Notes under the pieces: generated by a model | The model's input: only the letters and a program-made list of their open reading frames with translations | Databases searched by the model: none | Told to the model about the DNA's origin: nothing | Shown: one piece after another, positions 8,014 through 33,409 of the stretch | Position numbering within the stretch: position 1 is the stretch's first letter | How the letters are laid out: each line of letters begins with the position of its first letter | Program-made: the position numbers and the translations under genes | Assembly: GCF_024298765.1 (NCBI RefSeq) | Contig: NZ_CP101210.1 | Reading direction: 5' to 3' (one strand) | Length of the DNA: 64,000 bases | From: Escherichia coli | GTDB taxonomy: Bacteria > Pseudomonadota > Gammaproteobacteria > Enterobacterales > Enterobacteriaceae

Positions 8014-8745
8014 ATGAATCAACCAATACACAATGCTTACTGGTTATCCCGTTTTGACAGCCTTCTCGACAGTGCCCTGGCGCAGCACCGTGCCGTCTCG
8101 TTAATCCGGGTGGATTTACGTTTCCCTGAGTATATGCCTGTCACCATCATGGATCCCGATCCGGATTCAGCGGTGATTTCTCGTTTTTTTGCATCCCTGA
8201 AAGCCAAAATTCAGGCTTACCAGCGGAAAAAAAGATGTGCCAATCAGCGTGTGCATGCAACCAGCCTGGGTTATTTCTGGTGCCGGGAGTTCGGCAAGAT
8301 GTATGGCAGGAAACATTATCACGTGATATTACTGCTCAACAAAGATACCTGGTGCTCGCTCGGGGATTTCAGCGAACCGTCTTCGCTGGCGACGATGATC
8401 CAGGAGGCATGGTGCAGCGCCCTGCATCTTGAGCCCTGGCAGGGTAATGGACTGGTTCATTTTTCCAGGCGGACGCCTTTCCGTAAACCGACATCATCTG
8501 ATGCTCGCCCTTCTTCCGATGATACGCCTTTGTCGGGTGGATGTTCTGAAACCAGGAAGGTTTCAGACAAAAAGTCTGGTGAAGCCGCTGTTCTCTGGAT
8601 CAAGCGTGGTGATGTGGAAGCGATGCAGAAAGCCCGGAACAGAGCCAGTTATCTCGTGAAAAATGAAACGAAGTTGCATGATGGTTCAGGTCAACGTAAT
8701 TATGGTTGCAGTCGTGGGCCGGGGCGTCTACTGGATGGCAGGTGA
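8014..8745 (+). CDS. YagK/YfjJ family protein (inovirus Gp2-like)
   Basis: 243 aa; YHVILLLNKD core; preceded by ~1.5 kb AT-rich leader; IS1 lies about 350 bp downstream. Confidence 0.55.
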   Translation: MNQPIHNAYWLSRFDSLLDSALAQHRAVSLIRVDLRFPEYMPVTIMDPDPDSAVISRFFASLKAKIQAYQRKKRCANQRVHATSLGYFWCREFGKMYGRKHYHVILLLNKDTWCSLGDFSEPSSLATMIQEAWCSALHLEPWQGNGLVHFSRRTPFRKPTSSDARPSSDDTPLSGGCSETRKVSDKKSGEAAVLWIKRGDVEAMQKARNRASYLVKNETKLHDGSGQRNYGCSRGPGRLLDGR

Positions 8746-9111
8746 ACCCTGTAAAACAGCATCTGGTGCCTGAGTGTATACCACGGTAAGGGCGTTGGAT
8801 GATGTCTTTAAATAATACAGTGCATTTTCATTCGTTTCCGCACTTTATGTTTTCACTAATCATAATAGGAAAAGTGACCACTAGCCTTGATAAATTGTAT
8901 TCACGGCCATTTCAGGAGTGGATTGTTGTGAATAACACGATGAGATCAGGGGGCTGAAGATTTTTTCTTTATCCGTTCAGACTTCAGTAACTGGAAAAAG
9001 CTTTCTGTAACCGCATTATAGTGGCAGTTACCGCGATGGTCGTGTTATTTCAGGAACGACTGACGCTCATGGCTTGTACACTAAAGAGTGAACTTAGGTA
9101 ATGACTCCAAC

Positions 9112-9615
9112 TTATTGATAGTGTTTTATGTTCAGATAATGCCCGATGACTTTGTCATGCAGCTCCACCGATTTTGAGAACGACAGCGACTTCCGTCCCA
9201 GCCGTGCCAGGTGCTGCCTCAGATTCAGGTTATGCCGCTCAATTCGCTGCGTATATCGCTTGCTGATTACGTGCAGCTTTCCCTTCAGGCGGGATTCATA
9301 CAGCGGCCAGCCATCCGTCATCCATATCACCACGTCAAAGGGTGACAGCAGGCTCATAAGACGCCCCAGCGTCGCCATAGTGCGTTCACCGAATACGTGC
9401 GCAACAACCGTCTTCCGGAGACTGTCATACGCGTAAAACAGCCAGCGCTGGCGCGATTTAGCCCCGACATAGCCCCACTGTTCGTCCATTTCCTCGCAGA
9501 CGATGACGTCACTGCCCGGCTGTATGCGCGAGGTTACCGACTGCGGCCTGAGTTTTTTAAGTGACGTAAAATCGTGTTGAGGCCAACGCCCATAATGCGG
9601 GCAGTTGCCCGGCAT
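9112..9615 (-). CDS. insB: IS1 transposase InsB
   Basis: 167-aa ORF matching IS1 InsB as recalled. Confidence 0.9.
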
Positions 9616-9809
9616 CCGACGCCATTCATGGCCATATCAATGATTTTCTGGTGCGTACCGGGTTGAGAGGCGGTGTAAGTGAACTGTAGTTGCCATGTTT
9701 TACGGCAATGAGAGCAGAGATAGCGCTGATGTCCGGCAGTGCTTTTGCCGTTACGCACCACGCCTTCAGGAGCGGAGCAGGAAGGACATCTGATGGAAAT
9801 GGAAGCCAC
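9534..9809 (-). CDS. insA: IS1 protein InsA
   Basis: 91-aa ORF; Zn-finger CPSC...CSHC and HTH of InsA. Confidence 0.9.
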
Positions 9810-10072
9810 GCAAGCACCTTAAAATCACCATCATACACTAAATCAGTAAGTTGGCACCATTACCTGACCAAGCTTCCTCTATTGCGGCACCTGATTGCAT
9901 CAATATCGAAAGTGATAAGATCCTCTCACTAGCAGGGCATGACAAGTGTAACTGCTGATTTGTTAGCCTGTTTTAAGTTTTTTAAGATCAATTATTTCTC
10001 ATTTTTTGACTTTATTGCTAGCCGTGAAAATGCAAAGCCTATAGGATACAAAAATTACAATTTGTAGGTTTT

Positions 10073-10579
10073 GTGAGTCATATGAAGGCAACCAATATAG
10101 ACCCTCAACTGCTTGAAAAAGCCACGAGTATCTTTGCTGAGTTGGGCTTACCTATTGAGCAGGCTATTAACGTCTTTTTAGCTAAATCCGTTCAAGCCAA
10201 AGGTTTTCCGTTTTCTGTTGCTCTTGAAAATGAAGTAGAGACACGGGAAGTTGCACAAACGCAACACAATATCAGCAATGCAGAGATAACCGAAGCTATC
10301 CAAGACTTGGTTGAACATGCTCTACCACTGAGTGAAATAGAAAACCTCACGCAGCTAACCTATTGTCGCAACATTTTTGGGTTGTCATTCCCCGTGCTCA
10401 AACTGGCTAAATCATCACGGCCAGAAGACATTCGCAGTGCAGCCAAAGATGCCAAAGAGCGAAACCGCTACTCCACCACTAAAGTGGCCCAGCGAGATGA
10501 AAAAACCTATGTTATTTGCACCCAATGGACCGACAGACATCGTTCTGCATTTTGCCGTTGGCAAGCCATCTTTAGCTAG
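10073..10579 (+). CDS. RelB/DinJ-like antitoxin-domain protein with ~100-aa C-terminal extension
   Basis: N-terminal IDPQLLEKATSIFAELGLPIEQAINVFLAKSVQAKGFPFSV resembles DinJ/RelB fold; no toxin ORF adjacent; ends 66 bp before hsdM. Confidence 0.4.
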   Translation: MSHMKATNIDPQLLEKATSIFAELGLPIEQAINVFLAKSVQAKGFPFSVALENEVETREVAQTQHNISNAEITEAIQDLVEHALPLSEIENLTQLTYCRNIFGLSFPVLKLAKSSRPEDIRSAAKDAKERNRYSTTKVAQRDEKTYVICTQWTDRHRSAFCRWQAIFS

Positions 10580-10645
10580 AACGCAAAATAATAACCAAAC
10601 AATACACTGATTTTTTAACGATTTAACTTCATTTAGGTAGTATCA

Positions 10646-12625
10646 ATGAACTTACAAGACAAAGAACAAAGCGCCAAACTCTCCAGTGCTATTTGGCGTA
10701 TGGCAGATGATTTATGGGGTGATTTCAAACACACCGATTTTGCGCGGATTATCCTGCCATTTTTGCTACTGCGTCGTATTGAATGCGTGTTAGAACCCAC
10801 CCGTGAGGAAGTTCGTAAGTTCTATCTGGCCGAAAAACAATCCGGCATAGACCTTGGTTTAGTGTTGCCAGAAATTGCGGGATTCGCCTTTTACAACACC
10901 AGTGAATATAGCCTAGAAACCTTAGGCGCGTCAGACACCGGCGACAACCTAGAACACTACATCAGCCAGTTCAGCAAAAACGTTCGTACCATCTTTGATG
11001 AGTTTAAATTTGGTCAAACCATAGAAGATCTGGAAAAAGCCAAGTTGCTGTATCGCATGGTAAACCATTTTGCCAACCTCGACTTGCATCCTGATGTAGT
11101 GTCTGACCGCGTATTATCAGATGCTTATGAAGAGCTGATTCTAAAGTTCGCCAGTTCGGTTAATGAAAAGGCCGGGGAATTTATGACCCCGCGTGATGCC
11201 GTGCGTCTTGCCACCAAACTGGTGCTGGCGGCGGATGAAGATATCTTTAGTGAAAAGGGTGTGATCCGCACCATCTATGACCCAACCTGTGGCACGGGCG
11301 GTTTCCTTTCCGATGCCATTAGCCAAATTGAAGAAATGGGCAGCAGCGCTAAAGTCGTGCCTTTTGGTCAAGAGCTCGACCCCGCGACCCATGCCATGGC
11401 GCTGACCAATATGATGATCCGCGGTTTTGATGCCAATAACATCAAGCAAGGCAACACCTTATCAGACGATCAGTTACGTGCCGACAAGTTTCACTACGGC
11501 CTTGCCAACCCGCCATTTGGCATTAAGTGGGAAAAAGCCAAGAAAGAAGTAGAACGTGAGCACAAACAGCTCAAATACGCCGGACGCTTTGGGCCAGGCC
11601 TGCCGAGTATTTCTGATGGTTCAATGCTGTTTTTACTGCACTTGGTATCAAAAATGGAAACGCCGGAAAATGGTGGTGGCCGAGTGGGTATAGTCCTTTC
11701 TGGCTCGCCACTGTTTAATGGCGATGCAGGCTCAGGCCCATCAGAAATCCGCCGTTGGCTGCTAGAACAAGACTTAGTCGAAGCGATTGTTGCCCTGCCA
11801 ACCGATATGTTCTTCAACACCGGCATTGGCACCTACATCTGGATTTTGACTAACCATAAAGAGCCAAGACGCAAGAATCAGGTGCAACTGATTAACTTGG
11901 CAGATATTTGGACTCCCATGCGTAAATCGCAAGGCGATAAGCGCAAGTACCTGAGTGATGAACAGATTGACGATATTGTCCGTGCGTACGATGGCTTTGA
12001 AGCCAGTGACAACTGTAAGATCTTCCAGACTACTGATTTTGCCTACCGTAAAGTCACCATTCAGCGTCCACTGCGTGCCAAACTAGATATTACCGCTGCG
12101 GGCATTGCTGCATTTGTGCAGCAAGATACGTTTAAAAAACTCAAACCAGAGCAACAAGCGGCATGGGTACAATACCTCACCGATAACCTTGGCCTTCAGC
12201 CTTATGAATGGGCACGTTTGGCGGTTAAGAAGAATAACAATAAGGGTGACTTTGGTAAGTGCTCAAAAGCACTGGCTACGGCCTTAACTGCGCACTTTGT
12301 AAAAATTGATCCGCAATTTGAGCCTGCACTGGATGAAAAAGGCCAAGTGATCGCCGACCCTAAACTCAAAGACACCGAAAGCATTCCTTTTGACCGCGAC
12401 GTTGAAGATTACTTCGCACAAGAGGTGCTGCCACATGTACCGGATGCCTTTATTGATCACTCAGTGCGTGATGAAAAAGACGGCGAAGTGGGCATTGTCG
12501 GTTATGAAATTAACTTTAACCGCTATTTCTACCAATACGTGCCACCACGCGAGTTGAGTGTGATTGATCGTGAGCTAAAAGCATGTGAAGCGCGCATTCA
12601 GGCTCTGCTGAATGAGGTGGCGTAA
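10646..12625 (+). CDS. hsdM: Type I restriction-modification methyltransferase subunit HsdM
   Basis: 659 aa; motifs FMTPR, DPTCGTGGFL (SAM binding), NPPFG (catalytic); stop overlaps hsdS start (TAATG). Confidence 0.9.
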   Translation: MNLQDKEQSAKLSSAIWRMADDLWGDFKHTDFARIILPFLLLRRIECVLEPTREEVRKFYLAEKQSGIDLGLVLPEIAGFAFYNTSEYSLETLGASDTGDNLEHYISQFSKNVRTIFDEFKFGQTIEDLEKAKLLYRMVNHFANLDLHPDVVSDRVLSDAYEELILKFASSVNEKAGEFMTPRDAVRLATKLVLAADEDIFSEKGVIRTIYDPTCGTGGFLSDAISQIEEMGSSAKVVPFGQELDPATHAMALTNMMIRGFDANNIKQGNTLSDDQLRADKFHYGLANPPFGIKWEKAKKEVEREHKQLKYAGRFGPGLPSISDGSMLFLLHLVSKMETPENGGGRVGIVLSGSPLFNGDAGSGPSEIRRWLLEQDLVEAIVALPTDMFFNTGIGTYIWILTNHKEPRRKNQVQLINLADIWTPMRKSQGDKRKYLSDEQIDDIVRAYDGFEASDNCKIFQTTDFAYRKVTIQRPLRAKLDITAAGIAAFVQQDTFKKLKPEQQAAWVQYLTDNLGLQPYEWARLAVKKNNNKGDFGKCSKALATALTAHFVKIDPQFEPALDEKGQVIADPKLKDTESIPFDRDVEDYFAQEVLPHVPDAFIDHSVRDEKDGEVGIVGYEINFNRYFYQYVPPRELSVIDRELKACEARIQALLNEVA

Positions 12626-13911
12626 TGAATGCTGGCAACATAGTAGATGCTTTCGTATCTGACTCGAAATGGAACTCAGTACCAGCTAAACGTTTATTTA
12701 CGAGTAGCAAAGAAATCAATCAAGGAATGAAAGAATCTAATCGTCTTGCACTAACAATGAAAGGTGTCATAAACCGCTCGTTAGACGATTTACAAGGACT
12801 TCAATCTTCTGATTACTCTGTTTATCAGATTTTTGAAAAAGATGACTTAGTTTTTAAGCTCATAGATCTTGAAAATATAAAGACTAGCCGAGTGGGGATT
12901 GTGCATGAACGAGGAATAATGAGCCCTGCATACATCCGTGTTTCAGCGAGTTCAAATAGCATCTACCCAAGGTTCTATTACTGGTACTTTTTTGCTCTAT
13001 ACCTAACCAATATTTATAACAAACTGGGTGGAGGAGTTCGTCAGAACCTAACAGCTGGTGATCTTTTAGAAATACCTGTTCCACTGATTGATATTTCATT
13101 ACAGAAGCAGGTTAGCACATTCCTTGATCGCGAAACCCAGCGCATCGACAGTCTGATCGAGGAAAAGCAGACCTTTATTAAGCTGCTCAAAGAAAAACGC
13201 CAAGCACTGATCAGCCATGTGGTCACAAAGGGGCTCTATCCCAATGTGGAGATGCAGGACTCTGGCATCGAGTGGATTGGGCAAGTGCCGAAGCATTGGG
13301 AAGTCAAAAAGATAAAGCATATTTGCTCCAACTTTATGTATGGAACCTCTCAAGACTGTAACCAGTCTGATGTTGGCTATCCTGTTCTCAGGATACCAAA
13401 CATCAAGAGTACCAATGTTGATTTTGAAGATCTCAAATATGCAAATATCAGTGATGTTGATGCTTTAACTTATCTTTTATCAAGAGGCGACATTTTAGTC
13501 ATCAGAACTAACGGTAACCCTAATCTGGTCGGCCAAAGCGCGCTTTTTGATTCAAATGGGCAGTATTTATTTGCGTCGTACCTAATAAAGTTAACACCAA
13601 AGCAAGGAGTGGATACTAGCTTCTTAGTGGAAGCGATGAACTCACTATCTGTTCGTCAAGCATTAACATTTCAGTCAAGAACATCGGTAGGTAACTACAA
13701 CCTGAGCATTCCTTCACTAGCTAATACAAGTATTGCTATCCCACCAATTGATGAGCAAAAGACAATAACGAATTACTTGAGTGCAGCAACGATAAACATT
13801 GATTTACTGATTCAAGAGACTGATAAATCGATTGATCTTCTAAAAGAACACCGCACATCGCTGATCAACGCGGCTGTCACAGGAAAAATAGACGTCAGGG
13901 AGGCGGTGTAA
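12625..13911 (+). CDS. hsdS: Type I restriction-modification specificity subunit HsdS
   Basis: 428 aa; two variable target-recognition regions separated by conserved central (ETQRIDSLIEEKQTFIKLLKEKRQALI) and C-terminal repeats; TAATG overlaps on both sides. Confidence 0.85.
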   Translation: MNAGNIVDAFVSDSKWNSVPAKRLFTSSKEINQGMKESNRLALTMKGVINRSLDDLQGLQSSDYSVYQIFEKDDLVFKLIDLENIKTSRVGIVHERGIMSPAYIRVSASSNSIYPRFYYWYFFALYLTNIYNKLGGGVRQNLTAGDLLEIPVPLIDISLQKQVSTFLDRETQRIDSLIEEKQTFIKLLKEKRQALISHVVTKGLYPNVEMQDSGIEWIGQVPKHWEVKKIKHICSNFMYGTSQDCNQSDVGYPVLRIPNIKSTNVDFEDLKYANISDVDALTYLLSRGDILVIRTNGNPNLVGQSALFDSNGQYLFASYLIKLTPKQGVDTSFLVEAMNSLSVRQALTFQSRTSVGNYNLSIPSLANTSIAIPPIDEQKTITNYLSAATINIDLLIQETDKSIDLLKEHRTSLINAAVTGKIDVREAV

Positions 13912-16900
13912 TGGCTGCACATCATGAAGTGCATTTTGAACAATATATTACCGAGCAGTTGGTGAACAATGGCTGGAAAGAAGGCCATTCCTGCCACTAT
14001 GACCAGCAACGCGCCCTTTACCCGCAAGATGTCATGGATTGGGTAAAGGCCACCCAGCCAGATGCCTGGCACAAACTGAATAAACTGCATGGTGTGAATG
14101 CCGAGCAGGTGCTGTTGGAGCGTTTGGAAAAAGCCCTCTCTTCCCACAAAGCTGGCAGTAAAACAGGTGGCACCATTAATGTGCTGCGTAAAGGCTTTAC
14201 CATTGCAGGTTGCGGCACGATTGCCATGGGCCAACGCAAACCCGAAGATGCGCGCAATGAAGAGCGTATAGCCCGTTATGAGCACAACATTTTGCGCGTG
14301 GTGCGCCAACTGAAATATTGCCCGACTCGCGAGTGGGAAATTGACTTGGTGTTCTTTATCAACGGTCTACCCGTTGCCACCGCCGAGCTAAAAACCGATT
14401 TTACCCAGTCGCTAGAATCGGCGATTGCGCAGTACAAAGAGGATCGTCTGCCCGTTGACCCAAAAACCAAGCGTAAAGAGCCGCTGTTAACCTTTAAACG
14501 CGGTGCAGTGGTACATTTTGCCATGTCTGATACAGAAATCGCCATGGCGACCAAACTGGCGGGAGAAAATACCTATTTTCTGCCCTTCAATAAAGGCCAT
14601 GATGGTTCTACCTCTGATTTGCCCGTACACATCAACTTGCCGGGTGAAGATGGAGAGTATCCGGTCAGCTATTTTTGGCAAGAAATTGCCCAAAAAGATA
14701 ATTGGCTACGCATTTTCTACAGCTTTGTGTATGTCGAAACCAAAGAGGTTGCCGATAGCAATGGCAAGGTTGAGCGTAAGGAAACACAGATTTTTCCGCG
14801 TTATCATCAGTTAGCCGCAGTCAACAAGATGATTGATGATGCCCGCCAGAACGGCGCAGGCATGCAGTATCTTTGTGAGCACAGCGCCGGTTCGGGAAAA
14901 ACCTCTACCATAGCCTGGACGGCCCATGATTTGATTCGTTTACGCAGCACCGATGGTAAAGCGGTCTTTAAATCAGTGATCATTGTGACCGACCGCACCG
15001 TGCTGGATTCGCAGTTGCAAGATGCGGTGCAACAGCTGGATCATCAATATGGGGTGATTAAGGCGATTGATCGCGAAAAGAGCAGCGAGTCGAAATCAAA
15101 ACAGCTGACTGAAGCGCTATTGACTGGCACGCCGATCATTGTAGTGACGATTCAAACCTTCCCATATGCGTTAGAAGCGATTCTGACCAATCAATCTTTG
15201 GCACAAAGTAACTTTGCGGTGATCATCGATGAAGCACACACCTCGCAAACAGGCTCTACAGCCAAAGGGTTACGCGCAGCGCTTACTCTAAACCTTAGCC
15301 CTCAAGAGTTGGAGCAAATGAGCATTGAGGACATTCTTACTAAGGTGCAAGAAGCGCGCGCCATGCCCAAGAACGTTTCGCACTTTGCTTTTACGGCAAC
15401 ACCCAAGCACAGCACCAAGATGTTGTTTGGCCGCCCGAAAGACCCTAACCAACCAGTGTCAGATGACAATCTTCCTGAATCGTTCCACCTCTACACCCAA
15501 CGTCAGGCCATTGATGAGGGTTTTATTCTTGATGTGCTGGAGAATTACACCCACTACGATACAGCCTACAAAATTGGTGAGAACAATCTGGATGAGAAGC
15601 GCGTAGACAGCAAACAAGCTCGCCGCGCGTTGGCGCGCTGGATGTCACTGCACCCAACCACGGTCAGCCAAAAAGTCGAATTTATTATTAAGCACTTCAA
15701 GGCCAATATCGCTCACCTACTGGAAGGTGAAGCCAAAGCCATGGTGGTCACATCGGGCAGGCCACAGGCGGTGAAATACAAGCTTGCTTTTGATAAATAC
15801 ATTAAAAAGCATGGTATTGAAGGTATCCAAGCCTTGGTTGCCTTCTCGGGCAAAGTCCCCGGCAAAGATTTGGGTGATGAAGACAGCCAAGACCCGCTAG
15901 AAATTGATTTCGATAAAGAGTACACCGAGTACAACTTAAACCCAGACACGCACGGGGCTGACCTGCGCCATGAGTTTGAGAAAACCGAATATCGCGTCAT
16001 GTTAGTCGCCAACAAGTTCCAAACGGGCTTTAATCAACCAAAACTGGTTGCCATGTATTTGGATAAGAAAATATCCGATGTAGAAGCGGTGCAAACGCTG
16101 TCTCGCCTAAACCGCACCTATCCAGGCAAAGACACAACCTTCGTGATTGATTTTGTTAACGATCCACAAACCATTCTCAATGCGTTCAAAAAGTACGACA
16201 AAGGCGCGCAGCTTAATGAAGTGCAAGATGTGAACGTCATCTATGACATCAAAGATATTTTGGATGAACAGAACATATACAACCATCAAGATTTAGAGTT
16301 GTTTAAGCAAGCGCGTGGTAAATCGATTCTCGGCCAATCACCTGACAAAAAGCCACACGCGCACAAGAAACTGCTAGCTGCCACACAACGCCCTACCGAT
16401 GTGTTCAACGTTAAGCTCAAAGAGCTGGTTGATGCTGCAAACCATTGGGATCAGCAATACAACAAAGCGCACCTTGCGGGTGATGAAAAAGCGGCGAACT
16501 ACGCAGAATCTCAGCGCAGTGATTTCACCAAGCAGCGCGAAGCACTAATGCGTTTTAAGTCAGATTTAGCTCGATTTGTGAAGCACTATAGCTATATGGC
16601 GCAATTGATTGAGTTTGGTGATCCTGAACTGGAAAACTTTGCCGCGTTTGCTCATTTGCTATCACGTCGATTGAAAGGGGTAACACCAGAAAACATCGAT
16701 CTCAGTGCACTGGTACTAGAAAAATTCAAAATCAAATACGACAAAGAGCCGCTTCCAGAAGCGTTTAATCAGGTACTTGAACCTATCCGCCCCAACTATA
16801 ACGACCCTGCGGATCGTGAACAGGCATTTCTTGCCGATATCATTCGCCGCCTAAACGAACTGTTTGGCGATGTCGGCGACGAACCCGGTCGCCGAAACTT

Positions 16901-17147
16901 TGCCAACGGTACTATTACGCGTGTCACCCAAAATCCAATTGTGGTTGAGCAGATAGAAAAGCACGACAAGTCGATTGCCCTCAAAGGCGACTTGCCGCAA
17001 GCGGTGAAGCAAGCCGTTGTGCAGGCTCTGCTGAAAGAAGGTGATATAGCCCGAACGCTACTCAAAGACCCACAAGTTATGGCAAGTTATGTTGAGTTGA
17101 TTTTTGACATGATGAAGCAAGGTGCAGAACAGGCGGCGGTGAAATAA
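13911..17147 (+). CDS. hsdR: Type I restriction enzyme endonuclease/helicase subunit HsdR
   Basis: 1078 aa; Walker A GSGKTST and DEAH box (VIIDEAHTSQ); GGGAGG RBS; TAATG overlap with hsdS and with downstream gene. Confidence 0.9.
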   Translation: MAAHHEVHFEQYITEQLVNNGWKEGHSCHYDQQRALYPQDVMDWVKATQPDAWHKLNKLHGVNAEQVLLERLEKALSSHKAGSKTGGTINVLRKGFTIAGCGTIAMGQRKPEDARNEERIARYEHNILRVVRQLKYCPTREWEIDLVFFINGLPVATAELKTDFTQSLESAIAQYKEDRLPVDPKTKRKEPLLTFKRGAVVHFAMSDTEIAMATKLAGENTYFLPFNKGHDGSTSDLPVHINLPGEDGEYPVSYFWQEIAQKDNWLRIFYSFVYVETKEVADSNGKVERKETQIFPRYHQLAAVNKMIDDARQNGAGMQYLCEHSAGSGKTSTIAWTAHDLIRLRSTDGKAVFKSVIIVTDRTVLDSQLQDAVQQLDHQYGVIKAIDREKSSESKSKQLTEALLTGTPIIVVTIQTFPYALEAILTNQSLAQSNFAVIIDEAHTSQTGSTAKGLRAALTLNLSPQELEQMSIEDILTKVQEARAMPKNVSHFAFTATPKHSTKMLFGRPKDPNQPVSDDNLPESFHLYTQRQAIDEGFILDVLENYTHYDTAYKIGENNLDEKRVDSKQARRALARWMSLHPTTVSQKVEFIIKHFKANIAHLLEGEAKAMVVTSGRPQAVKYKLAFDKYIKKHGIEGIQALVAFSGKVPGKDLGDEDSQDPLEIDFDKEYTEYNLNPDTHGADLRHEFEKTEYRVMLVANKFQTGFNQPKLVAMYLDKKISDVEAVQTLSRLNRTYPGKDTTFVIDFVNDPQTILNAFKKYDKGAQLNEVQDVNVIYDIKDILDEQNIYNHQDLELFKQARGKSILGQSPDKKPHAHKKLLAATQRPTDVFNVKLKELVDAANHWDQQYNKAHLAGDEKAANYAESQRSDFTKQREALMRFKSDLARFVKHYSYMAQLIEFGDPELENFAAFAHLLSRRLKGVTPENIDLSALVLEKFKIKYDKEPLPEAFNQVLEPIRPNYNDPADREQAFLADIIRRLNELFGDVGDEPGRRNFANGTITRVTQNPIVVEQIEKHDKSIALKGDLPQAVKQAVVQALLKEGDIARTLLKDPQVMASYVELIFDMMKQGAEQAAVK

Positions 17148-17701
17148 TGAATACTGCGTTTCGGGTTTTACTTACGTTCAATGCAACATCACTACTAGTG
17201 ATTATCTTTGCGGTACAAAAAGGGTACTCACTCGGATATTTCTTTGGTGGTTTCGCTTGCTTCGATTGGATAGCAGCACTTCCGAACGCAGTATCATATT
17301 TACTCTATTTTCTTATCCCTGTTTTATCGACTGGATTGAGTATTTGGCTGAGTAAGTATTTGGGTAAAGACGATTTTAAGGCGGGTGAAGTAGCGAGTAT
17401 TGAGCATGCCAATAACAGCTTCCTACCAAGTTATTTGGGTTACTTTTTCGTGGCGTTGAGCATTGGTAACTGGGAGACATTGTGGTTTGTTTATGGCGTT
17501 TTGTTTGTTTTTACTCTCTTATCGCAAGCACTCTACTTTAACCCATTGTTTTTACTGTTTGGTTATGAGTTTTATAACATTACAACCAAAAACGGAACGG
17601 CCATTTTCCTTATTAGCCGAGAGCGCTACAAGAAGCCAGATGACATCGAAATATCATTGGCTTATCGAATCAATAATTACACATTTATCGAGCGAGGATA
17701 A
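17147..17701 (+). CDS. small integral membrane protein (about 4 predicted TM helices), translationally coupled to hsdR; KwaA-like candidate
   Basis: 184 aa; hydrophobic segments LLVIIFAV, YLLYFLIPVLSTGLSIWL, YLGYFFVALSI, LWFVYGVLFVFTLL; start overlaps hsdR stop (TAATG); visibly more AT-rich than hsdR. Confidence 0.6.
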   Translation: MNTAFRVLLTFNATSLLVIIFAVQKGYSLGYFFGGFACFDWIAALPNAVSYLLYFLIPVLSTGLSIWLSKYLGKDDFKAGEVASIEHANNSFLPSYLGYFFVALSIGNWETLWFVYGVLFVFTLLSQALYFNPLFLLFGYEFYNITTKNGTAIFLISRERYKKPDDIEISLAYRINNYTFIERG

Positions 17702-18543
17702 TGATGGACCATGTACTGGCACATATAAAAACTAGAGCAAAAAAACGCATTTTCAAATTGGTTTCTGATCAATCTCTTTTTGATACCGTCACAATCGACT
17801 TAAATGCCTGTATTCCATACAATCCAGACCATAACCTTGACGAAGACTCATGGTTTAAAATTGAAGACTTTAGTCAAAAAGAGTTTTGTATTGAACTGCT
17901 AAAAAAAGACTATGATTCAAAAGACTACGATGACTTAACCAAAGATAACTTCGCCAAGATCGCCTACTTATTTGCAATTCAAGGTAATGATTTTTACTTT
18001 CAAAAAATCACTCCAAGCCTATTCGTAAAACGCAAAACGCTTGTTTTTGGTGAAGCCGCAGAAATTGAGAAGAGCCAAACACGTTTAGTAATAAACGCCT
18101 TACCTGATGCAGTGTACTTCAAAGTGGCCGATACCTTGATATTCAAAAATCTGGCAACGATCTCGAGCATTTTTAAAGGTATCGATGAGTTGTACAAGGA
18201 AGCAACAAAAGAAGAAGTTGAGCAGTTTTTAGATGCACAGTTTATAGAGTTGGGTAATGACTACAACGTAGATAGCGTCTCAAAACCTAATAGAAAACGT
18301 ATTGGCCTTGCTATGGCAACACTTGATGCGATGTCTGCTGACGATAAAGCTAACATGCTTGATTATATCGACGGTTACTGCGGTGAACAGAAGCTGAAAT
18401 TCGATAAAGAAAATCAGAAGTTTGAAATATCTAATGACGATGAGTTGAAGTTACTGCTTTATGGCATTGAACAACGCTTCTATACGACCCCGTTTGGCAA
18501 AGAAAAAAGGCTCGCTAACTCTGTAACCGCTATGGATAAATAA
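17701..18543 (+). CDS. hypothetical acidic cytoplasmic protein, coupled to the membrane protein; KwaB-like candidate
   Basis: 280 aa, no TM segments, GAGG RBS, start overlaps upstream stop (TAATG); family not recognised by eye. Confidence 0.6.
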   Translation: MMDHVLAHIKTRAKKRIFKLVSDQSLFDTVTIDLNACIPYNPDHNLDEDSWFKIEDFSQKEFCIELLKKDYDSKDYDDLTKDNFAKIAYLFAIQGNDFYFQKITPSLFVKRKTLVFGEAAEIEKSQTRLVINALPDAVYFKVADTLIFKNLATISSIFKGIDELYKEATKEEVEQFLDAQFIELGNDYNVDSVSKPNRKRIGLAMATLDAMSADDKANMLDYIDGYCGEQKLKFDKENQKFEISNDDELKLLLYGIEQRFYTTPFGKEKRLANSVTAMDK

Positions 18544-18563
18544 TAGCCCATTATCAGTAACAT

Positions 18564-19613
18564 ATGAAGGTTGATTCAATGGCCGATAACATCCCACAAG
18601 CTCCTCAAGGTGAGTTTGTTCTTTTCACCAGTGCTGATGGTCAAACCCGCGTTGAGTGTCGTTTTGAGTCTGACACCTTGTGGCTTTCTCAGGCTGCAAT
18701 GGCAGAGCTTTATCAAGTTAGCTCTCAAGCAATCACCCAACACGTAAAAGCTGTCTATTCTGAAGAAGAGCTTGAGCAAATTTCAACTTGTAAGGATTAC
18801 TTACAAGTTCAACTGGAAGGTGGCAGAGAAGTAAAGCGAAGCATTCGTCACTACAGTCTTCCGGTTATTCTTGCAGTAGGATACCGAGTTCGCTCAACAC
18901 GTGGCACCCAGTTCCGCCAATGGGCAACCAGAATGTTGCAAGAATACCTAATCAAAGGATTCGTCATGGATGACGAGCGCCTGAAAAATCCGCCCATTGG
19001 CCATTCTGCTGTGCCAGATTACTTTGATGAAATGCTGGAACGCATTCGTGATATCCGAGCTAGTGAGCGTCGCGTTTATCTGCGAGTCAAAGAAATCTTT
19101 ACCATGGCTGCTGATTACGAGCCATCTAACCAAGAGACCAACCGCTTCTTCCAAACCATTCAGAATAAGCTGCATTATGCTTGTACGCATATGACGGCTG
19201 CTGAGCTTATCGCCAGCCGTGTGGATGCCAGTAAGCCGGATATGGGCTTAACCAGCTATAAAGGCGATGAAGTGCGCAAGACAGACGTTACTGTTGCCAA
19301 GAACTATTTGCGTGAAGACGAAATCAAAGAGCTTAATCGCATCGTCAATATGTGGCTCGACTTTGCTGAAGACCAAGCACTGCGTCGCAAGCAGGTATTT
19401 TTACAGGACTGGGCCGATAAGCTTGACCAGTTCTTGAGTTTTAACGATAGAGATGTATTAAACGGTGCAGGAAAAATCTCCAAGAAAGACGCTGATGACA
19501 AAGCGAAATTGGAGTTTGACCGCTTTGCCCAGCAGCGCCGTCGTTTAAAAGAAGCCGAAGGCGCACGGGCCAATATCGCAGCCCTCAAGGCCATACTAAA
19601 AAAAGATAAATAG
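18564..19613 (+). CDS. rhuM: RhuM-family protein
   Basis: 349 aa; sequence recalled as RhuM family, often found beside Type I RM loci; likely true start at ATG 18579 (GAAGG RBS). Confidence 0.55.
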   Translation: MKVDSMADNIPQAPQGEFVLFTSADGQTRVECRFESDTLWLSQAAMAELYQVSSQAITQHVKAVYSEEELEQISTCKDYLQVQLEGGREVKRSIRHYSLPVILAVGYRVRSTRGTQFRQWATRMLQEYLIKGFVMDDERLKNPPIGHSAVPDYFDEMLERIRDIRASERRVYLRVKEIFTMAADYEPSNQETNRFFQTIQNKLHYACTHMTAAELIASRVDASKPDMGLTSYKGDEVRKTDVTVAKNYLREDEIKELNRIVNMWLDFAEDQALRRKQVFLQDWADKLDQFLSFNDRDVLNGAGKISKKDADDKAKLEFDRFAQQRRRLKEAEGARANIAALKAILKKDK

Positions 19614-19670
19614 CCGATATAGTACAGCCCTGATCTCTAATGAGTTGAGGGCTGTGTTGTAAGATCATAA

Positions 19671-20347
19671 CTATAAAGGATTATCCATCTTAAAATCGTC
19701 GATATCGCCTGTCATTTTGAATAGATTGGTGTCATTCCAACGGCACAGTTGTCTAACCCGCATTAGATTTGAGTTGGCTCTGCGGATTATTGAGAAAGCA
19801 TCTTCAACAGCAGTAATCACCGATTTTTCCCAATCTTGTGCTCGGGTAAAGGTGCTTTGTGAATAGCGATAATTGCCCTCACGGGGGAGGTAATGGCTGA
19901 TCACCTGGTATTTGTCAGAATTCTTTTTAGGTTTAAACTCGTTGTAAACCCAGAAAATTTCGAGTTTTTTGTTTCTTTGCCTTACACGACAACCAAAATG
20001 ACCTGGGTAGCCTTCAGAGTTTTTACCTCTATGTGCAACGTTGTTCAGCCAGAACAAGTCTGCAATTTTTTGTGCTATGTAGAAGTAGCGGAGCTGTTCT
20101 ATTTCGGTTGATTTATGGGTGTAGTGTAGATATTGCTCTGATATGGTTAAGGAAAAAGCATTGCGTCGTCTTGATTAACATTTGTGCTATTGACAATAAA
20201 GGTTTCCCAAATATTAATTTGTGTTTCTAGTCCTTTAAATGATTTTGAGAAGGCTTCTATGTACTCAGATTGCGGTTGATTTCCCCCATTTAGTGCTGCA
20301 CCAAATGTAGCTATCTATTGTTCTAAAAATGAATGATTTTTGGTCAT
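19671..20347 (-). pseudogene. disrupted gene of unknown function (at least three frame segments)
   Basis: 128-aa ORF has no in-frame ATG at its 5-prime end and is open upstream; two more open segments in other frames up to an ATG near 20347. Confidence 0.4.
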
Positions 20348-22880: not shown

Positions 22881-22986
22881 TTCATACGTCCATCACCAAC
22901 TGATTGTTGTCATAACGGGTAACATAAAGGACTGAACGACTGTTTGAACCGCCCCGGGTTTCCTGGAGAGTGTTTTATCTGTGAAC

Positions 22987-26237
<3,251 letters not shown>

Positions 26238-26922
26238 GTTCCAGCTCTTTCAGACGCTGACGTTCAGCGCTGGTGAGCCCACCATCACCGCCCCCGGTAT
26301 CCCGCTCATGCTGGCGAACCCAGACACGCAGAGTCTCCGGCGTACAGCCAATCTTTGGAGCAATGGAACAAATTGCCGCCCACTGTGAGTCATATTCATC
26401 CTGACTTTCCAGAACCATACGAATCGCCCGCTGACGGACTTCGGGGGAAAAACGAGTATTTTTAGTCATCCTGTTTACCTCTTTCTCAGGGAGTTTAGTC
26501 TCCAGGATTTCCGGGGCGGTTCAAATACTGGGCGAAGGGAGATGTTATTGCGAAGCGCGCGCCAATTGGTCAGTGGGAACCTTATTCGGAAGAGTCACTA
26601 CTTGGCATCATCGTCACCAGCGTCTGTCGTATTAAAGTCGCGATGCTAAAACCTGAACCTCCCAGAGATCCCCATATCCCGCTGATGGGGGATTTTAACT
26701 AAAACTTAGCGCTATCGCTGCGTATCGTAACTATCCCGTATTACGTAGCGTAAATTATGACGCCATACGGGGAACAAATACACAGAGGAAGAAAAAGATT
26801 AGATTGGTTTTAAGGGATGTTTTTATCATAAATGGCACTGCTAAAATTATGAGATTATCGAAGATAAAATTCTTGATCATACATAAAAGGCCTCCTGAAT
26901 TAAATCAAGAGGCGTATAGTTT

Positions 26923-31098: not shown

Positions 31099-32214
31099 GT
31101 GAACCGCCCCGTGTTTCCTGTTTATCATTTTCTGGTCAGTGCCGCGATTCTGGTATTCGTGGTGATTTTCTGGCGGACACACCATCGCGACCACCGTAAC
31201 TGGCTGGCTCTACGGCTATTCGTATTATGCTCTGTAAACCGTTGGCCATTGCGGATGGTTAAAGGAACAGTTGTGGGGACAACTGACACATTACGTGAAA
31301 TGCAGCGTTATGAACAACTGAGTCAGCACGGGGCTGACAACTGGAAAATCCAGCCGGGAGCACCGTTATATGATACGATTGTTATTGTCACTGGTGAGAA
31401 TGTGCGCAGGGATTATATGTCAGTGTATGGCTATCTCGTACCAACCACACCGTGGCTGAATACGGCACCCGGTTTATTTATTGACGATTATACCTTGACA
31501 GCCTCCAGTACAGTGTCTTCCCTGAGCCGGACACTGATTTATGACTATGAGCAGAACCCTGATTCCGGCAACAATGTGGTGGCGCTGGCAGCAAAAGCAG
31601 GATACAGCACATGGTGGATATCCAATCAAGGAAAACTGGGGGAGCATGACACACGCATCTCTGTTATTGCTTCTGATGCGGAGCATGCCACTTTCCTCAA
31701 GAAAGGCAGCTTCGCTTCCCGTAAAACAGATGACAAACTGTTGTTACAGGAAACAGAACGTGCGCTGGCGGATACATCCTCTCCGAAGATAATTTTCCTG
31801 CACATGATGGGTTCTCATCCAAATCCGTGTGACAGCCTTAACTCCTGGCCGAATAATTACCTGGAGCAGTATCCCCGAAAAATTGCCTGTTACCTCGCCA
31901 GCATCAGTAAACTGGATAACTTTCTTGGCCAGCTTGATGGTATCCTTCGCCGGTACTCACATCATTTCGCCATGCTTTACTTTTCTGGCCTTGGGCTGTC
32001 GGTCAGCGACAGTGCCAATCCTGTTCATCATTATGGTCATGTGCAGGGAGGCTACAGTGTGCCACTGATTATTACCGCCAGTGACATAACGTCTCATCAG
32101 CCCGTCAGTAGAAAAATCAGTGCCCGTCATTTCGCAGGTATTTTTCAGTGGATGAACGGTATTTGTACTGAAAATATACCGCCATTCAATCCGCTGACAG
32201 ACGAAGATAATTAA
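31099..32214 (+). CDS. sulfatase-like (alkaline phosphatase superfamily) membrane-anchored hydrolase/transferase, possibly N-terminally truncated
   Basis: GTG start with AGGAG RBS; one N-terminal TM then motifs IVIVTGENVRRDYMSVYGY and YSTWWISNQG...HD resembling phosphoethanolamine-transferase catalytic domains; IS5 abuts the stop codon. Confidence 0.5.
   Translation: MNRPVFPVYHFLVSAAILVFVVIFWRTHHRDHRNWLALRLFVLCSVNRWPLRMVKGTVVGTTDTLREMQRYEQLSQHGADNWKIQPGAPLYDTIVIVTGENVRRDYMSVYGYLVPTTPWLNTAPGLFIDDYTLTASSTVSSLSRTLIYDYEQNPDSGNNVVALAAKAGYSTWWISNQGKLGEHDTRISVIASDAEHATFLKKGSFASRKTDDKLLLQETERALADTSSPKIIFLHMMGSHPNPCDSLNSWPNNYLEQYPRKIACYLASISKLDNFLGQLDGILRRYSHHFAMLYFSGLGLSVSDSANPVHHYGHVQGGYSVPLIITASDITSHQPVSRKISARHFAGIFQWMNGICTENIPPFNPLTDEDN

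Positions 32215-33409
<1,195 letters not shown>

Follow-up and report, generated by a model that had tools for sequence, protein, structure and literature searches.

A Hybrid IS1 Element Joining an Island Remnant to a Type I Restriction-Modification Block in Escherichia coli, a Probable Product of Recombination between Two IS1 Copies

Main Finding

The IS1 element at positions 9097-9864 of a 64,000-nucleotide stretch of Escherichia coli DNA (contig NZ_CP101210.1; the whole stretch that was analysed is called the window below) is very probably a hybrid, formed when two IS1 copies in direct orientation underwent homologous recombination. The element, which lacks a target-site duplication, joins a prophage-like island remnant to a type I restriction-modification (RM) block and would represent the scar of a recombination event that rebuilt a genomic island. 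In this event a CP4-like island would have lost its integrase-proximal part, with an ATP-dependent nuclease gene in it, and gained the RM block in its place. The first-pass annotation of this DNA had proposed that an IS1-mediated deletion or recombination set the RM operon beside the island remnant. That proposal is supported by the occurrence of the two junctions separately with other partners and by the two-part mosaic structure of the element itself. Moreover, the comparison with 5,426 complete E. coli genomes narrows the reading to homologous recombination between IS1 copies, with loss of the DNA downstream of the left site.

The IS1 Element and Its Flanks

Elements of the IS1 family are about 768 bp long and carry imperfect terminal inverted repeats of about 23 bp, which start with GGTRATG. 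They encode insA, with a zinc ribbon and an HTH, followed by insB′, with a DDE transposase domain, and an A6C programmed −1 frameshift site lies in the overlap of the two frames. A primary insertion of IS1 is flanked at both ends by an 8-9 bp direct duplication of the target DNA. The element in the window, a complete IS1 of 768 bp on the minus strand, shows the length, the inverted repeats, the insA/insB′ domains, and the A6C site of the family; of these features only the flanking target duplication is missing. Its two ends, GGTAATGACTCCAACTTATTGATAGTG at 9097-9123 and minus-strand GGTAATGGTGCCAACTTACTGATTTAGTG at 9836-9864, are each present once in the window, and a search of the window by these ends found no second IS1, leaving 9097-9864 as the sole copy.

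Both reading frames of the element are open, and their Pfam scores are far above the cut-offs. The insA frame in the ORF list (91 aa; 9534-9809, minus strand) matches Zn_ribbon_InsA (E=2e-19) and HTH_Tnp_IS1 (E=4.9e-31), and the insB′ frame (167 aa; 9112-9615, minus strand) matches DDE_Tnp_IS1 (E=2.8e-77). The A6C programmed −1 frameshift motif, TTAAAAAACTC at 9550-9560 on the minus strand, is also intact and lies at position 305 of the element in the minus-strand reading. The corresponding copy in strain FY10 (NZ_CP095816), which differs from that of the window by one base, is annotated as an intact IS1 family transposase with programmed frameshift. The missing duplication is the product of later recombination and not a sign of another family.

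The nine bases immediately outside the element are GTGAACTTA on the left (9088-9096) and TGACCAAGC on the right (9865-9873), as the first-pass annotation had written them, and they differ at five of nine positions. A recount of the exact termini confirmed that the element has no target-site duplication: with all shifts of the termini tried, no 8-9 bp repeat turned up in any register, and the best one, TGAACTTA against TGACCAAG, agrees at 4 of 8 positions. The termini are fixed independently by other genomes, in which the left site either is empty or carries IS1 with a clean 8-bp duplication.

A missing duplication is recognised to result from IS-IS recombination or from adjacent deletion, and decay of the duplication is listed as well (PMC11708052). 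Ordinary transposition, followed by decay of the 9-bp duplication through point mutations, is extremely improbable at this locus, since it would have to account for five differences in nine flank positions next to DNA that otherwise matches other genomes at 99.9-100% identity, and the left and right flanks are contiguous without IS1 in none of the 5,426 genomes.

The Left Junction

The IS1-free left site was reconstructed and searched against the 5,426 complete E. coli genomes. The site is uninterrupted, in one piece and at 99-100% identity, in 14 genomes, for example in the strain named ST-131 (NZ_CP157672). In the same search, seven records were found in which an identically oriented IS1 occupies exactly this base, with an 8-bp duplication, TGAACTTA, at its two ends. 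These records are EC15, EC7, B1, MMC-J-0085, UID2309220009, and two assemblies of strain 167, and the matched pieces are 1476 bp long, corresponding to 700 + 768 + 8. Rightward of the left site, the empty-site and the duplication-flanked genomes alike continue with CACAGATG... into an ATP-dependent nuclease gene. The window retains a single TGAACTTA at 9089-9096. This 8-bp target of the left-parent IS1A stands on both sides of IS1 in EC15, B1, and MMC-J-0085 and is present once in the 14 empty-site genomes. Judged by these matches, the left junction of the window is the junction of an ordinary primary IS1A insertion.

The target site of this insertion is intergenic. It lies 351 bp downstream of a YagK/YfjJ gene of the inovirus Gp2 family (8014-8745, plus strand; Pfam YagK_YfjJ_C, E=4.6e-36; RefSeq in FY10 and Z226-7), which is the last gene of the left CP4-like island remnant, and upstream of the ATP-dependent nuclease gene. 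Neither the window nor any of the five genomes that have its two flanks contains the nuclease-side DNA.

A small plus-strand ORF, probably not a gene, is found at the left flank (9036-9101). From an ATG at 9036 it reads MVVLFQERLTLMACTLKSEL, followed by R and a stop codon within IS1, and it comprises 21 codons here and 38 codons in the translation of the reconstructed empty site. The first-pass annotation had described an ORF whose start, just left of IS1, is cut by the element. This holds literally, in that the frame is present and ends inside IS1, but the intact frame has only 38 codons, is unannotated, and is intergenic. There is no annotation over the 38-codon frame in ST-131, where the annotation was read, and no feature name at this place in the other 13 empty-site genomes. 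The other half of the interrupted ORF, for which a search elsewhere in the genome had been suggested, was looked for and found neither in the window nor in any genome with the same junction. Probably no gene is interrupted by IS1, and the 38-codon frame should not be treated as one.

On the reverse strand, the stretch over the left IS1 target (8950-9096 and its deleted continuation) translates as MSSKR, a stop, LAEFKIKAVKQIVEHGYSVSQRCNTSV, and a second stop. It gives a Pfam match to HTH_Tnp_1 (E=0.0026) that is under the cut-off, and it looks like a decayed remnant of an IS3-family orfA.

The Right Junction

To the right of the element, the flank that starts with TGACCAAGC extends over 9865-10072 to a RelB/DinJ-like gene (10073-10579, plus strand; Pfam RelB, E=2.6e-5; RefSeq), the first gene of the RM block. 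The type I restriction-modification genes hsdM (10646-12625), hsdS (12625-13911), and hsdR (13911-17147) follow on the plus strand, covering 10646-17147 together, as given by the ORF list and by RefSeq annotation of identical loci. This right-parent junction is invariant. The right flank occurs in 76 of the 5,426 E. coli genomes, and IS1 stands at the identical base in 76 of 76, 208 bp before the RelB-like gene; the same junction between IS1 and the right flank is present in all five of the metagenome contig matches.

The whole block downstream of the right-site IS1 (9865-20000 of the window) contains the RelB-like gene, hsdMSR, two hypothetical genes, rhuM, and mobI. The RelB/DinJ-like protein (10073-10579) is 168 aa long and is encoded upstream of hsdM with no adjoining toxin gene, and its RelB domain match covers residues 7-70 only.

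An uninterrupted right site was not found in the 5,426 E. coli genomes, all 76 carriers having IS1. The right flank gave no match in the GTDB representative genomes, and a search for the right site on plasmids returned only hsdM relatives at about 67% identity. In the form of either a duplication or an empty site, no primary insertion of the right-parent IS1 was found in the E. coli genomes, the GTDB representatives, or the metagenome contigs.

The left partners of the right junction were read in 18 copies, namely the window and 17 genomes. At least nine left-partner types were distinguished, that of the window and eight others, and a TGACCAAGC duplication was present in none of the 18 copies. 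In the window the partner is the YagK/YfjJ site. The other types are an integrase fragment (S30, MEW, SMS-3-5, and 219), cybC (PK8275 and CM2), a sul2 region, a Tn3/IS5075 region, daaF, an IS3 fragment, a DNA-binding protein gene adjoining ythA and nanY, and a hypothetical gene beside an aminoimidazole riboside kinase gene. In addition, the bodies of the right-site IS1 in other genomes are differing mosaics of the same two sequence types.

The flanks opposite the RM block include islands associated with selC, leuX, and pap, as well as the cybC region and resistance regions with sul2/Tn3. This single unchanging junction between IS1 and the RM block, with its many partners, is an example of IS copies working as recombination hubs, through which defence genes are shuffled from island to island. 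It could be tentatively suggested that the IS1 of the RM block serves as a portable homology "handle", by which the block is re-partnered or relocated through recombination with resident IS1 copies. If this rather doubtful suggestion were true, the RM block would be a defence cassette mobilised via IS homology and not by transposition.

Mosaic Structure of the Element

The window element was aligned with two types of IS1, the IS1A that has flanking duplications in EC15 and B1 and the isoform at the right site of SMS-3-5. Compared to IS1A, there are no differences in positions 1-521 of the element and 22 in positions 522-768; the 43 differences from the right-site isoform all fall in positions 1-516, with none in positions 517-768. 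If the differences were evenly scattered, the chances of such clustering would be 1.5e-11 and 3.7e-8. The left-parent segment of IS1A type (9097-9612, minus strand), which comprises the IRR end and most of insB′, is identical to the IS1A of EC15 and B1. The right-parent segment of the divergent isoform (9618-9864, minus strand), with the IRL end and most of insA, is identical to SMS-3-5. The table of variable sites places the crossover interval at 9613-9617, the last left-parent marker being 9612 and the first right-parent marker 9618. On this alignment, the window IS1 is a two-part mosaic of two isoforms with one switch.

Both parents are collinear with the window in the alignment, which indicates two IS1 copies in direct orientation. 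The crossover could be placed within 5 bp because the parental copies differ in sequence, and it is unusual that a crossover can be read to within five bases.

The switch point of the window recurs in FY10, and the other four genomes that combine the two flanks of the window (Z226-7, STE15, UID2309220015, and CT282) have an earlier one, between 9572 and 9600. Two versions of the hybrid IS1 are found in these five genomes, and they are distinguished by five substitutions clustered in 13 bp (9600-9612). The two switch points would require either two independent crossovers or a later short patch of gene conversion.

The isoform structure bears directly on adjacent deletion, or inversion followed by deletion, in which the RM-side IS1 would have hit a nearby target by intramolecular replicative transposition and the intervening DNA would have been deleted. 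Missing duplications commonly arise in this way too (PMC11708052), and some of the many left partners of the right-site IS1 could stem from it. For the window it is very improbable. Adjacent deletion predicts an unchanged resident IS, whereas the left two-thirds of the window element are a different isoform. It also predicts a fresh target, whereas the left junction agrees, to the base and in orientation, with the duplication-flanked IS1A insertion of seven records. Furthermore, the 14 empty left sites argue against the idea that the TGAACTTA-duplicated IS1A insertions are derivatives of a window-type junction.

Recombination between Two IS1 Copies

The preferred reading, homologous recombination between two IS1 copies, can be set out in a few steps. 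Copy a, of IS1A type, would have inserted by ordinary transposition into TGAACTTA downstream of the YagK/YfjJ gene of a CP4-like island. Copy b would be the divergent isoform, which in all known copies of the RM block precedes the RelB-like gene by 208 bp. One crossover in the shared IS1 sequence (9613-9617) would have connected the DNA left of a with the DNA right of b, and its product would be a single hybrid IS1 without matching target repeats. The DNA natively following a, namely the nuclease gene and the integrase-proximal part of the CP4-like island, would have been lost. Each of the two junctions exists separately elsewhere, the left one with the nuclease flank in seven records and the right one with eight other left flanks.

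The presumed agent is RecA-type homologous recombination by the host, as opposed to the transposase. The route could have been a deletion in cis between two copies on one chromosome, for example in tandem islands, or a replacement by incoming DNA. The replacement route would involve a second crossover elsewhere, in shared backbone or island sequence. The two flanks of the window are combined in only 5 of the 5,426 genomes. A genome with both parental flanks, representing either a cis precursor or a reciprocal product, was found in 0 of 97 genomes (21 with the nuclease flank and 76 with the RM flank). Deletion in cis and horizontal replacement are not told apart because no genome has both parental junctions.

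Genomic Setting

Positions 1-32214 of the window match FY10, with two mismatches in the 11.8 kb around IS1 that were compared base by base. In FY10 the whole stretch lies within one composite island between tRNA-Sec (selC) and yicL. From selC, the island starts with an integrase, ept, tia, an integrase fragment, nanX, nanY, ythA, and IS3 remnants with a group II intron. It continues with mobI, rhuM, hsdR, hsdS, hsdM, the RelB-like gene, and IS1. After IS1 follow the YagK/YfjJ gene, a CP4-like module ending in CbtA/CbeA, a second IS1, and yicL. This second IS1 of FY10, which separates yicL from the distal end of the CP4-like module, corresponds to a place about 3.7 kb left of window position 1. 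It is 92% identical to the IS1 of the window, and the CP4-like module is thus bracketed by two IS1 copies.

The hybrid junction occurs in different settings: FY10 has it between selC and yicL, Z226-7 has it in the leuX-fim region, and in STE15 it adjoins papC, and the YagK/YfjJ gene is truncated there. The junction has therefore since moved with its surroundings.

Two larger rearrangements were considered and rejected. The first was a rearrangement of about 660 kb between selC and leuX, in view of the location of nanX, nanY, and ythA near leuX in K-12; the DNA of FY10 from selC to yicL is one composite island. The second was a simple inversion that would have started from an arrangement like that of S30; in FY10 a reciprocal IS1 is missing at the integrase fragment, and the nuclease-side DNA is absent.

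An assembly artefact, in which two IS1-bounded contigs were misjoined via a collapsed IS1 repeat, has also to be weighed. IS copies are classic sites of misjoining, and the match of the window in the genome collection ends at 32214. The junction is nevertheless present in five independently sequenced complete genomes, from China (avian isolates and one hospital isolate) and Thailand (one human isolate), and a collapsed repeat is not expected to yield a clean single-switch mosaic that FY10 has as well. Misassembly is thus very improbable.

Other mobile elements lie further along the window. An IS5/ISKpn26-like element of 1195 bp (32215-33409) lacks its 4-bp target duplication, with TTAA on the left and CTAG on the right. 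The match to the selC island of FY10 stops at this element, and another island with YagK/YfjJ, IS66, and tssF/tssG follows. The element is probably a second recombinant IS junction. In addition, a group II intron with a reverse transcriptase/maturase (about 22900-26300; ltrA ORF at 23550-25073, minus strand) lies within an IS3/IS1203-like element, which in S30 and in strain 201609 is present without the intron.

Comparison with Known Systems

The window element shares with IS1 of the IS1A/IS1R type, known from Escherichia coli and Shigella, the length of 768 bp, the terminal inverted repeats, insA/insB′, the A6C site, and the DDE_Tnp_IS1 domain. RefSeq-annotated IS1A copies are identical to its left 516 bp. 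It differs from IS1A in the right 247 bp, which belong to the other isoform (22 differences), and in having no flanking duplication.

IS1 adjacent deletion also gives a single IS1 without duplication beside a deletion, as is seen in the window. However, an unaltered resident IS and a novel junction are expected from it, and neither is found in the window.

Recombination between IS copies has been described as a source of deletions, inversions, and replacements in laboratory evolution and comparative genomics (PMC11708052). Beyond the general statement of that paper, a literature search for IS1 isoform mosaics found nothing specific. The formation of a hybrid IS by IS-IS recombination is a well-known, textbook kind of event and nothing conceptually new. 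Hybrid copies that arise in this way have mismatched flanks, each of which can be traced to its own parental insertion, and the DNA following one of the parents is lost; the window IS1 is alike in these respects. In the usual hybrid IS the parental copies are identical and the exchange is traceless, whereas the parents of the window IS1 differ in sequence.
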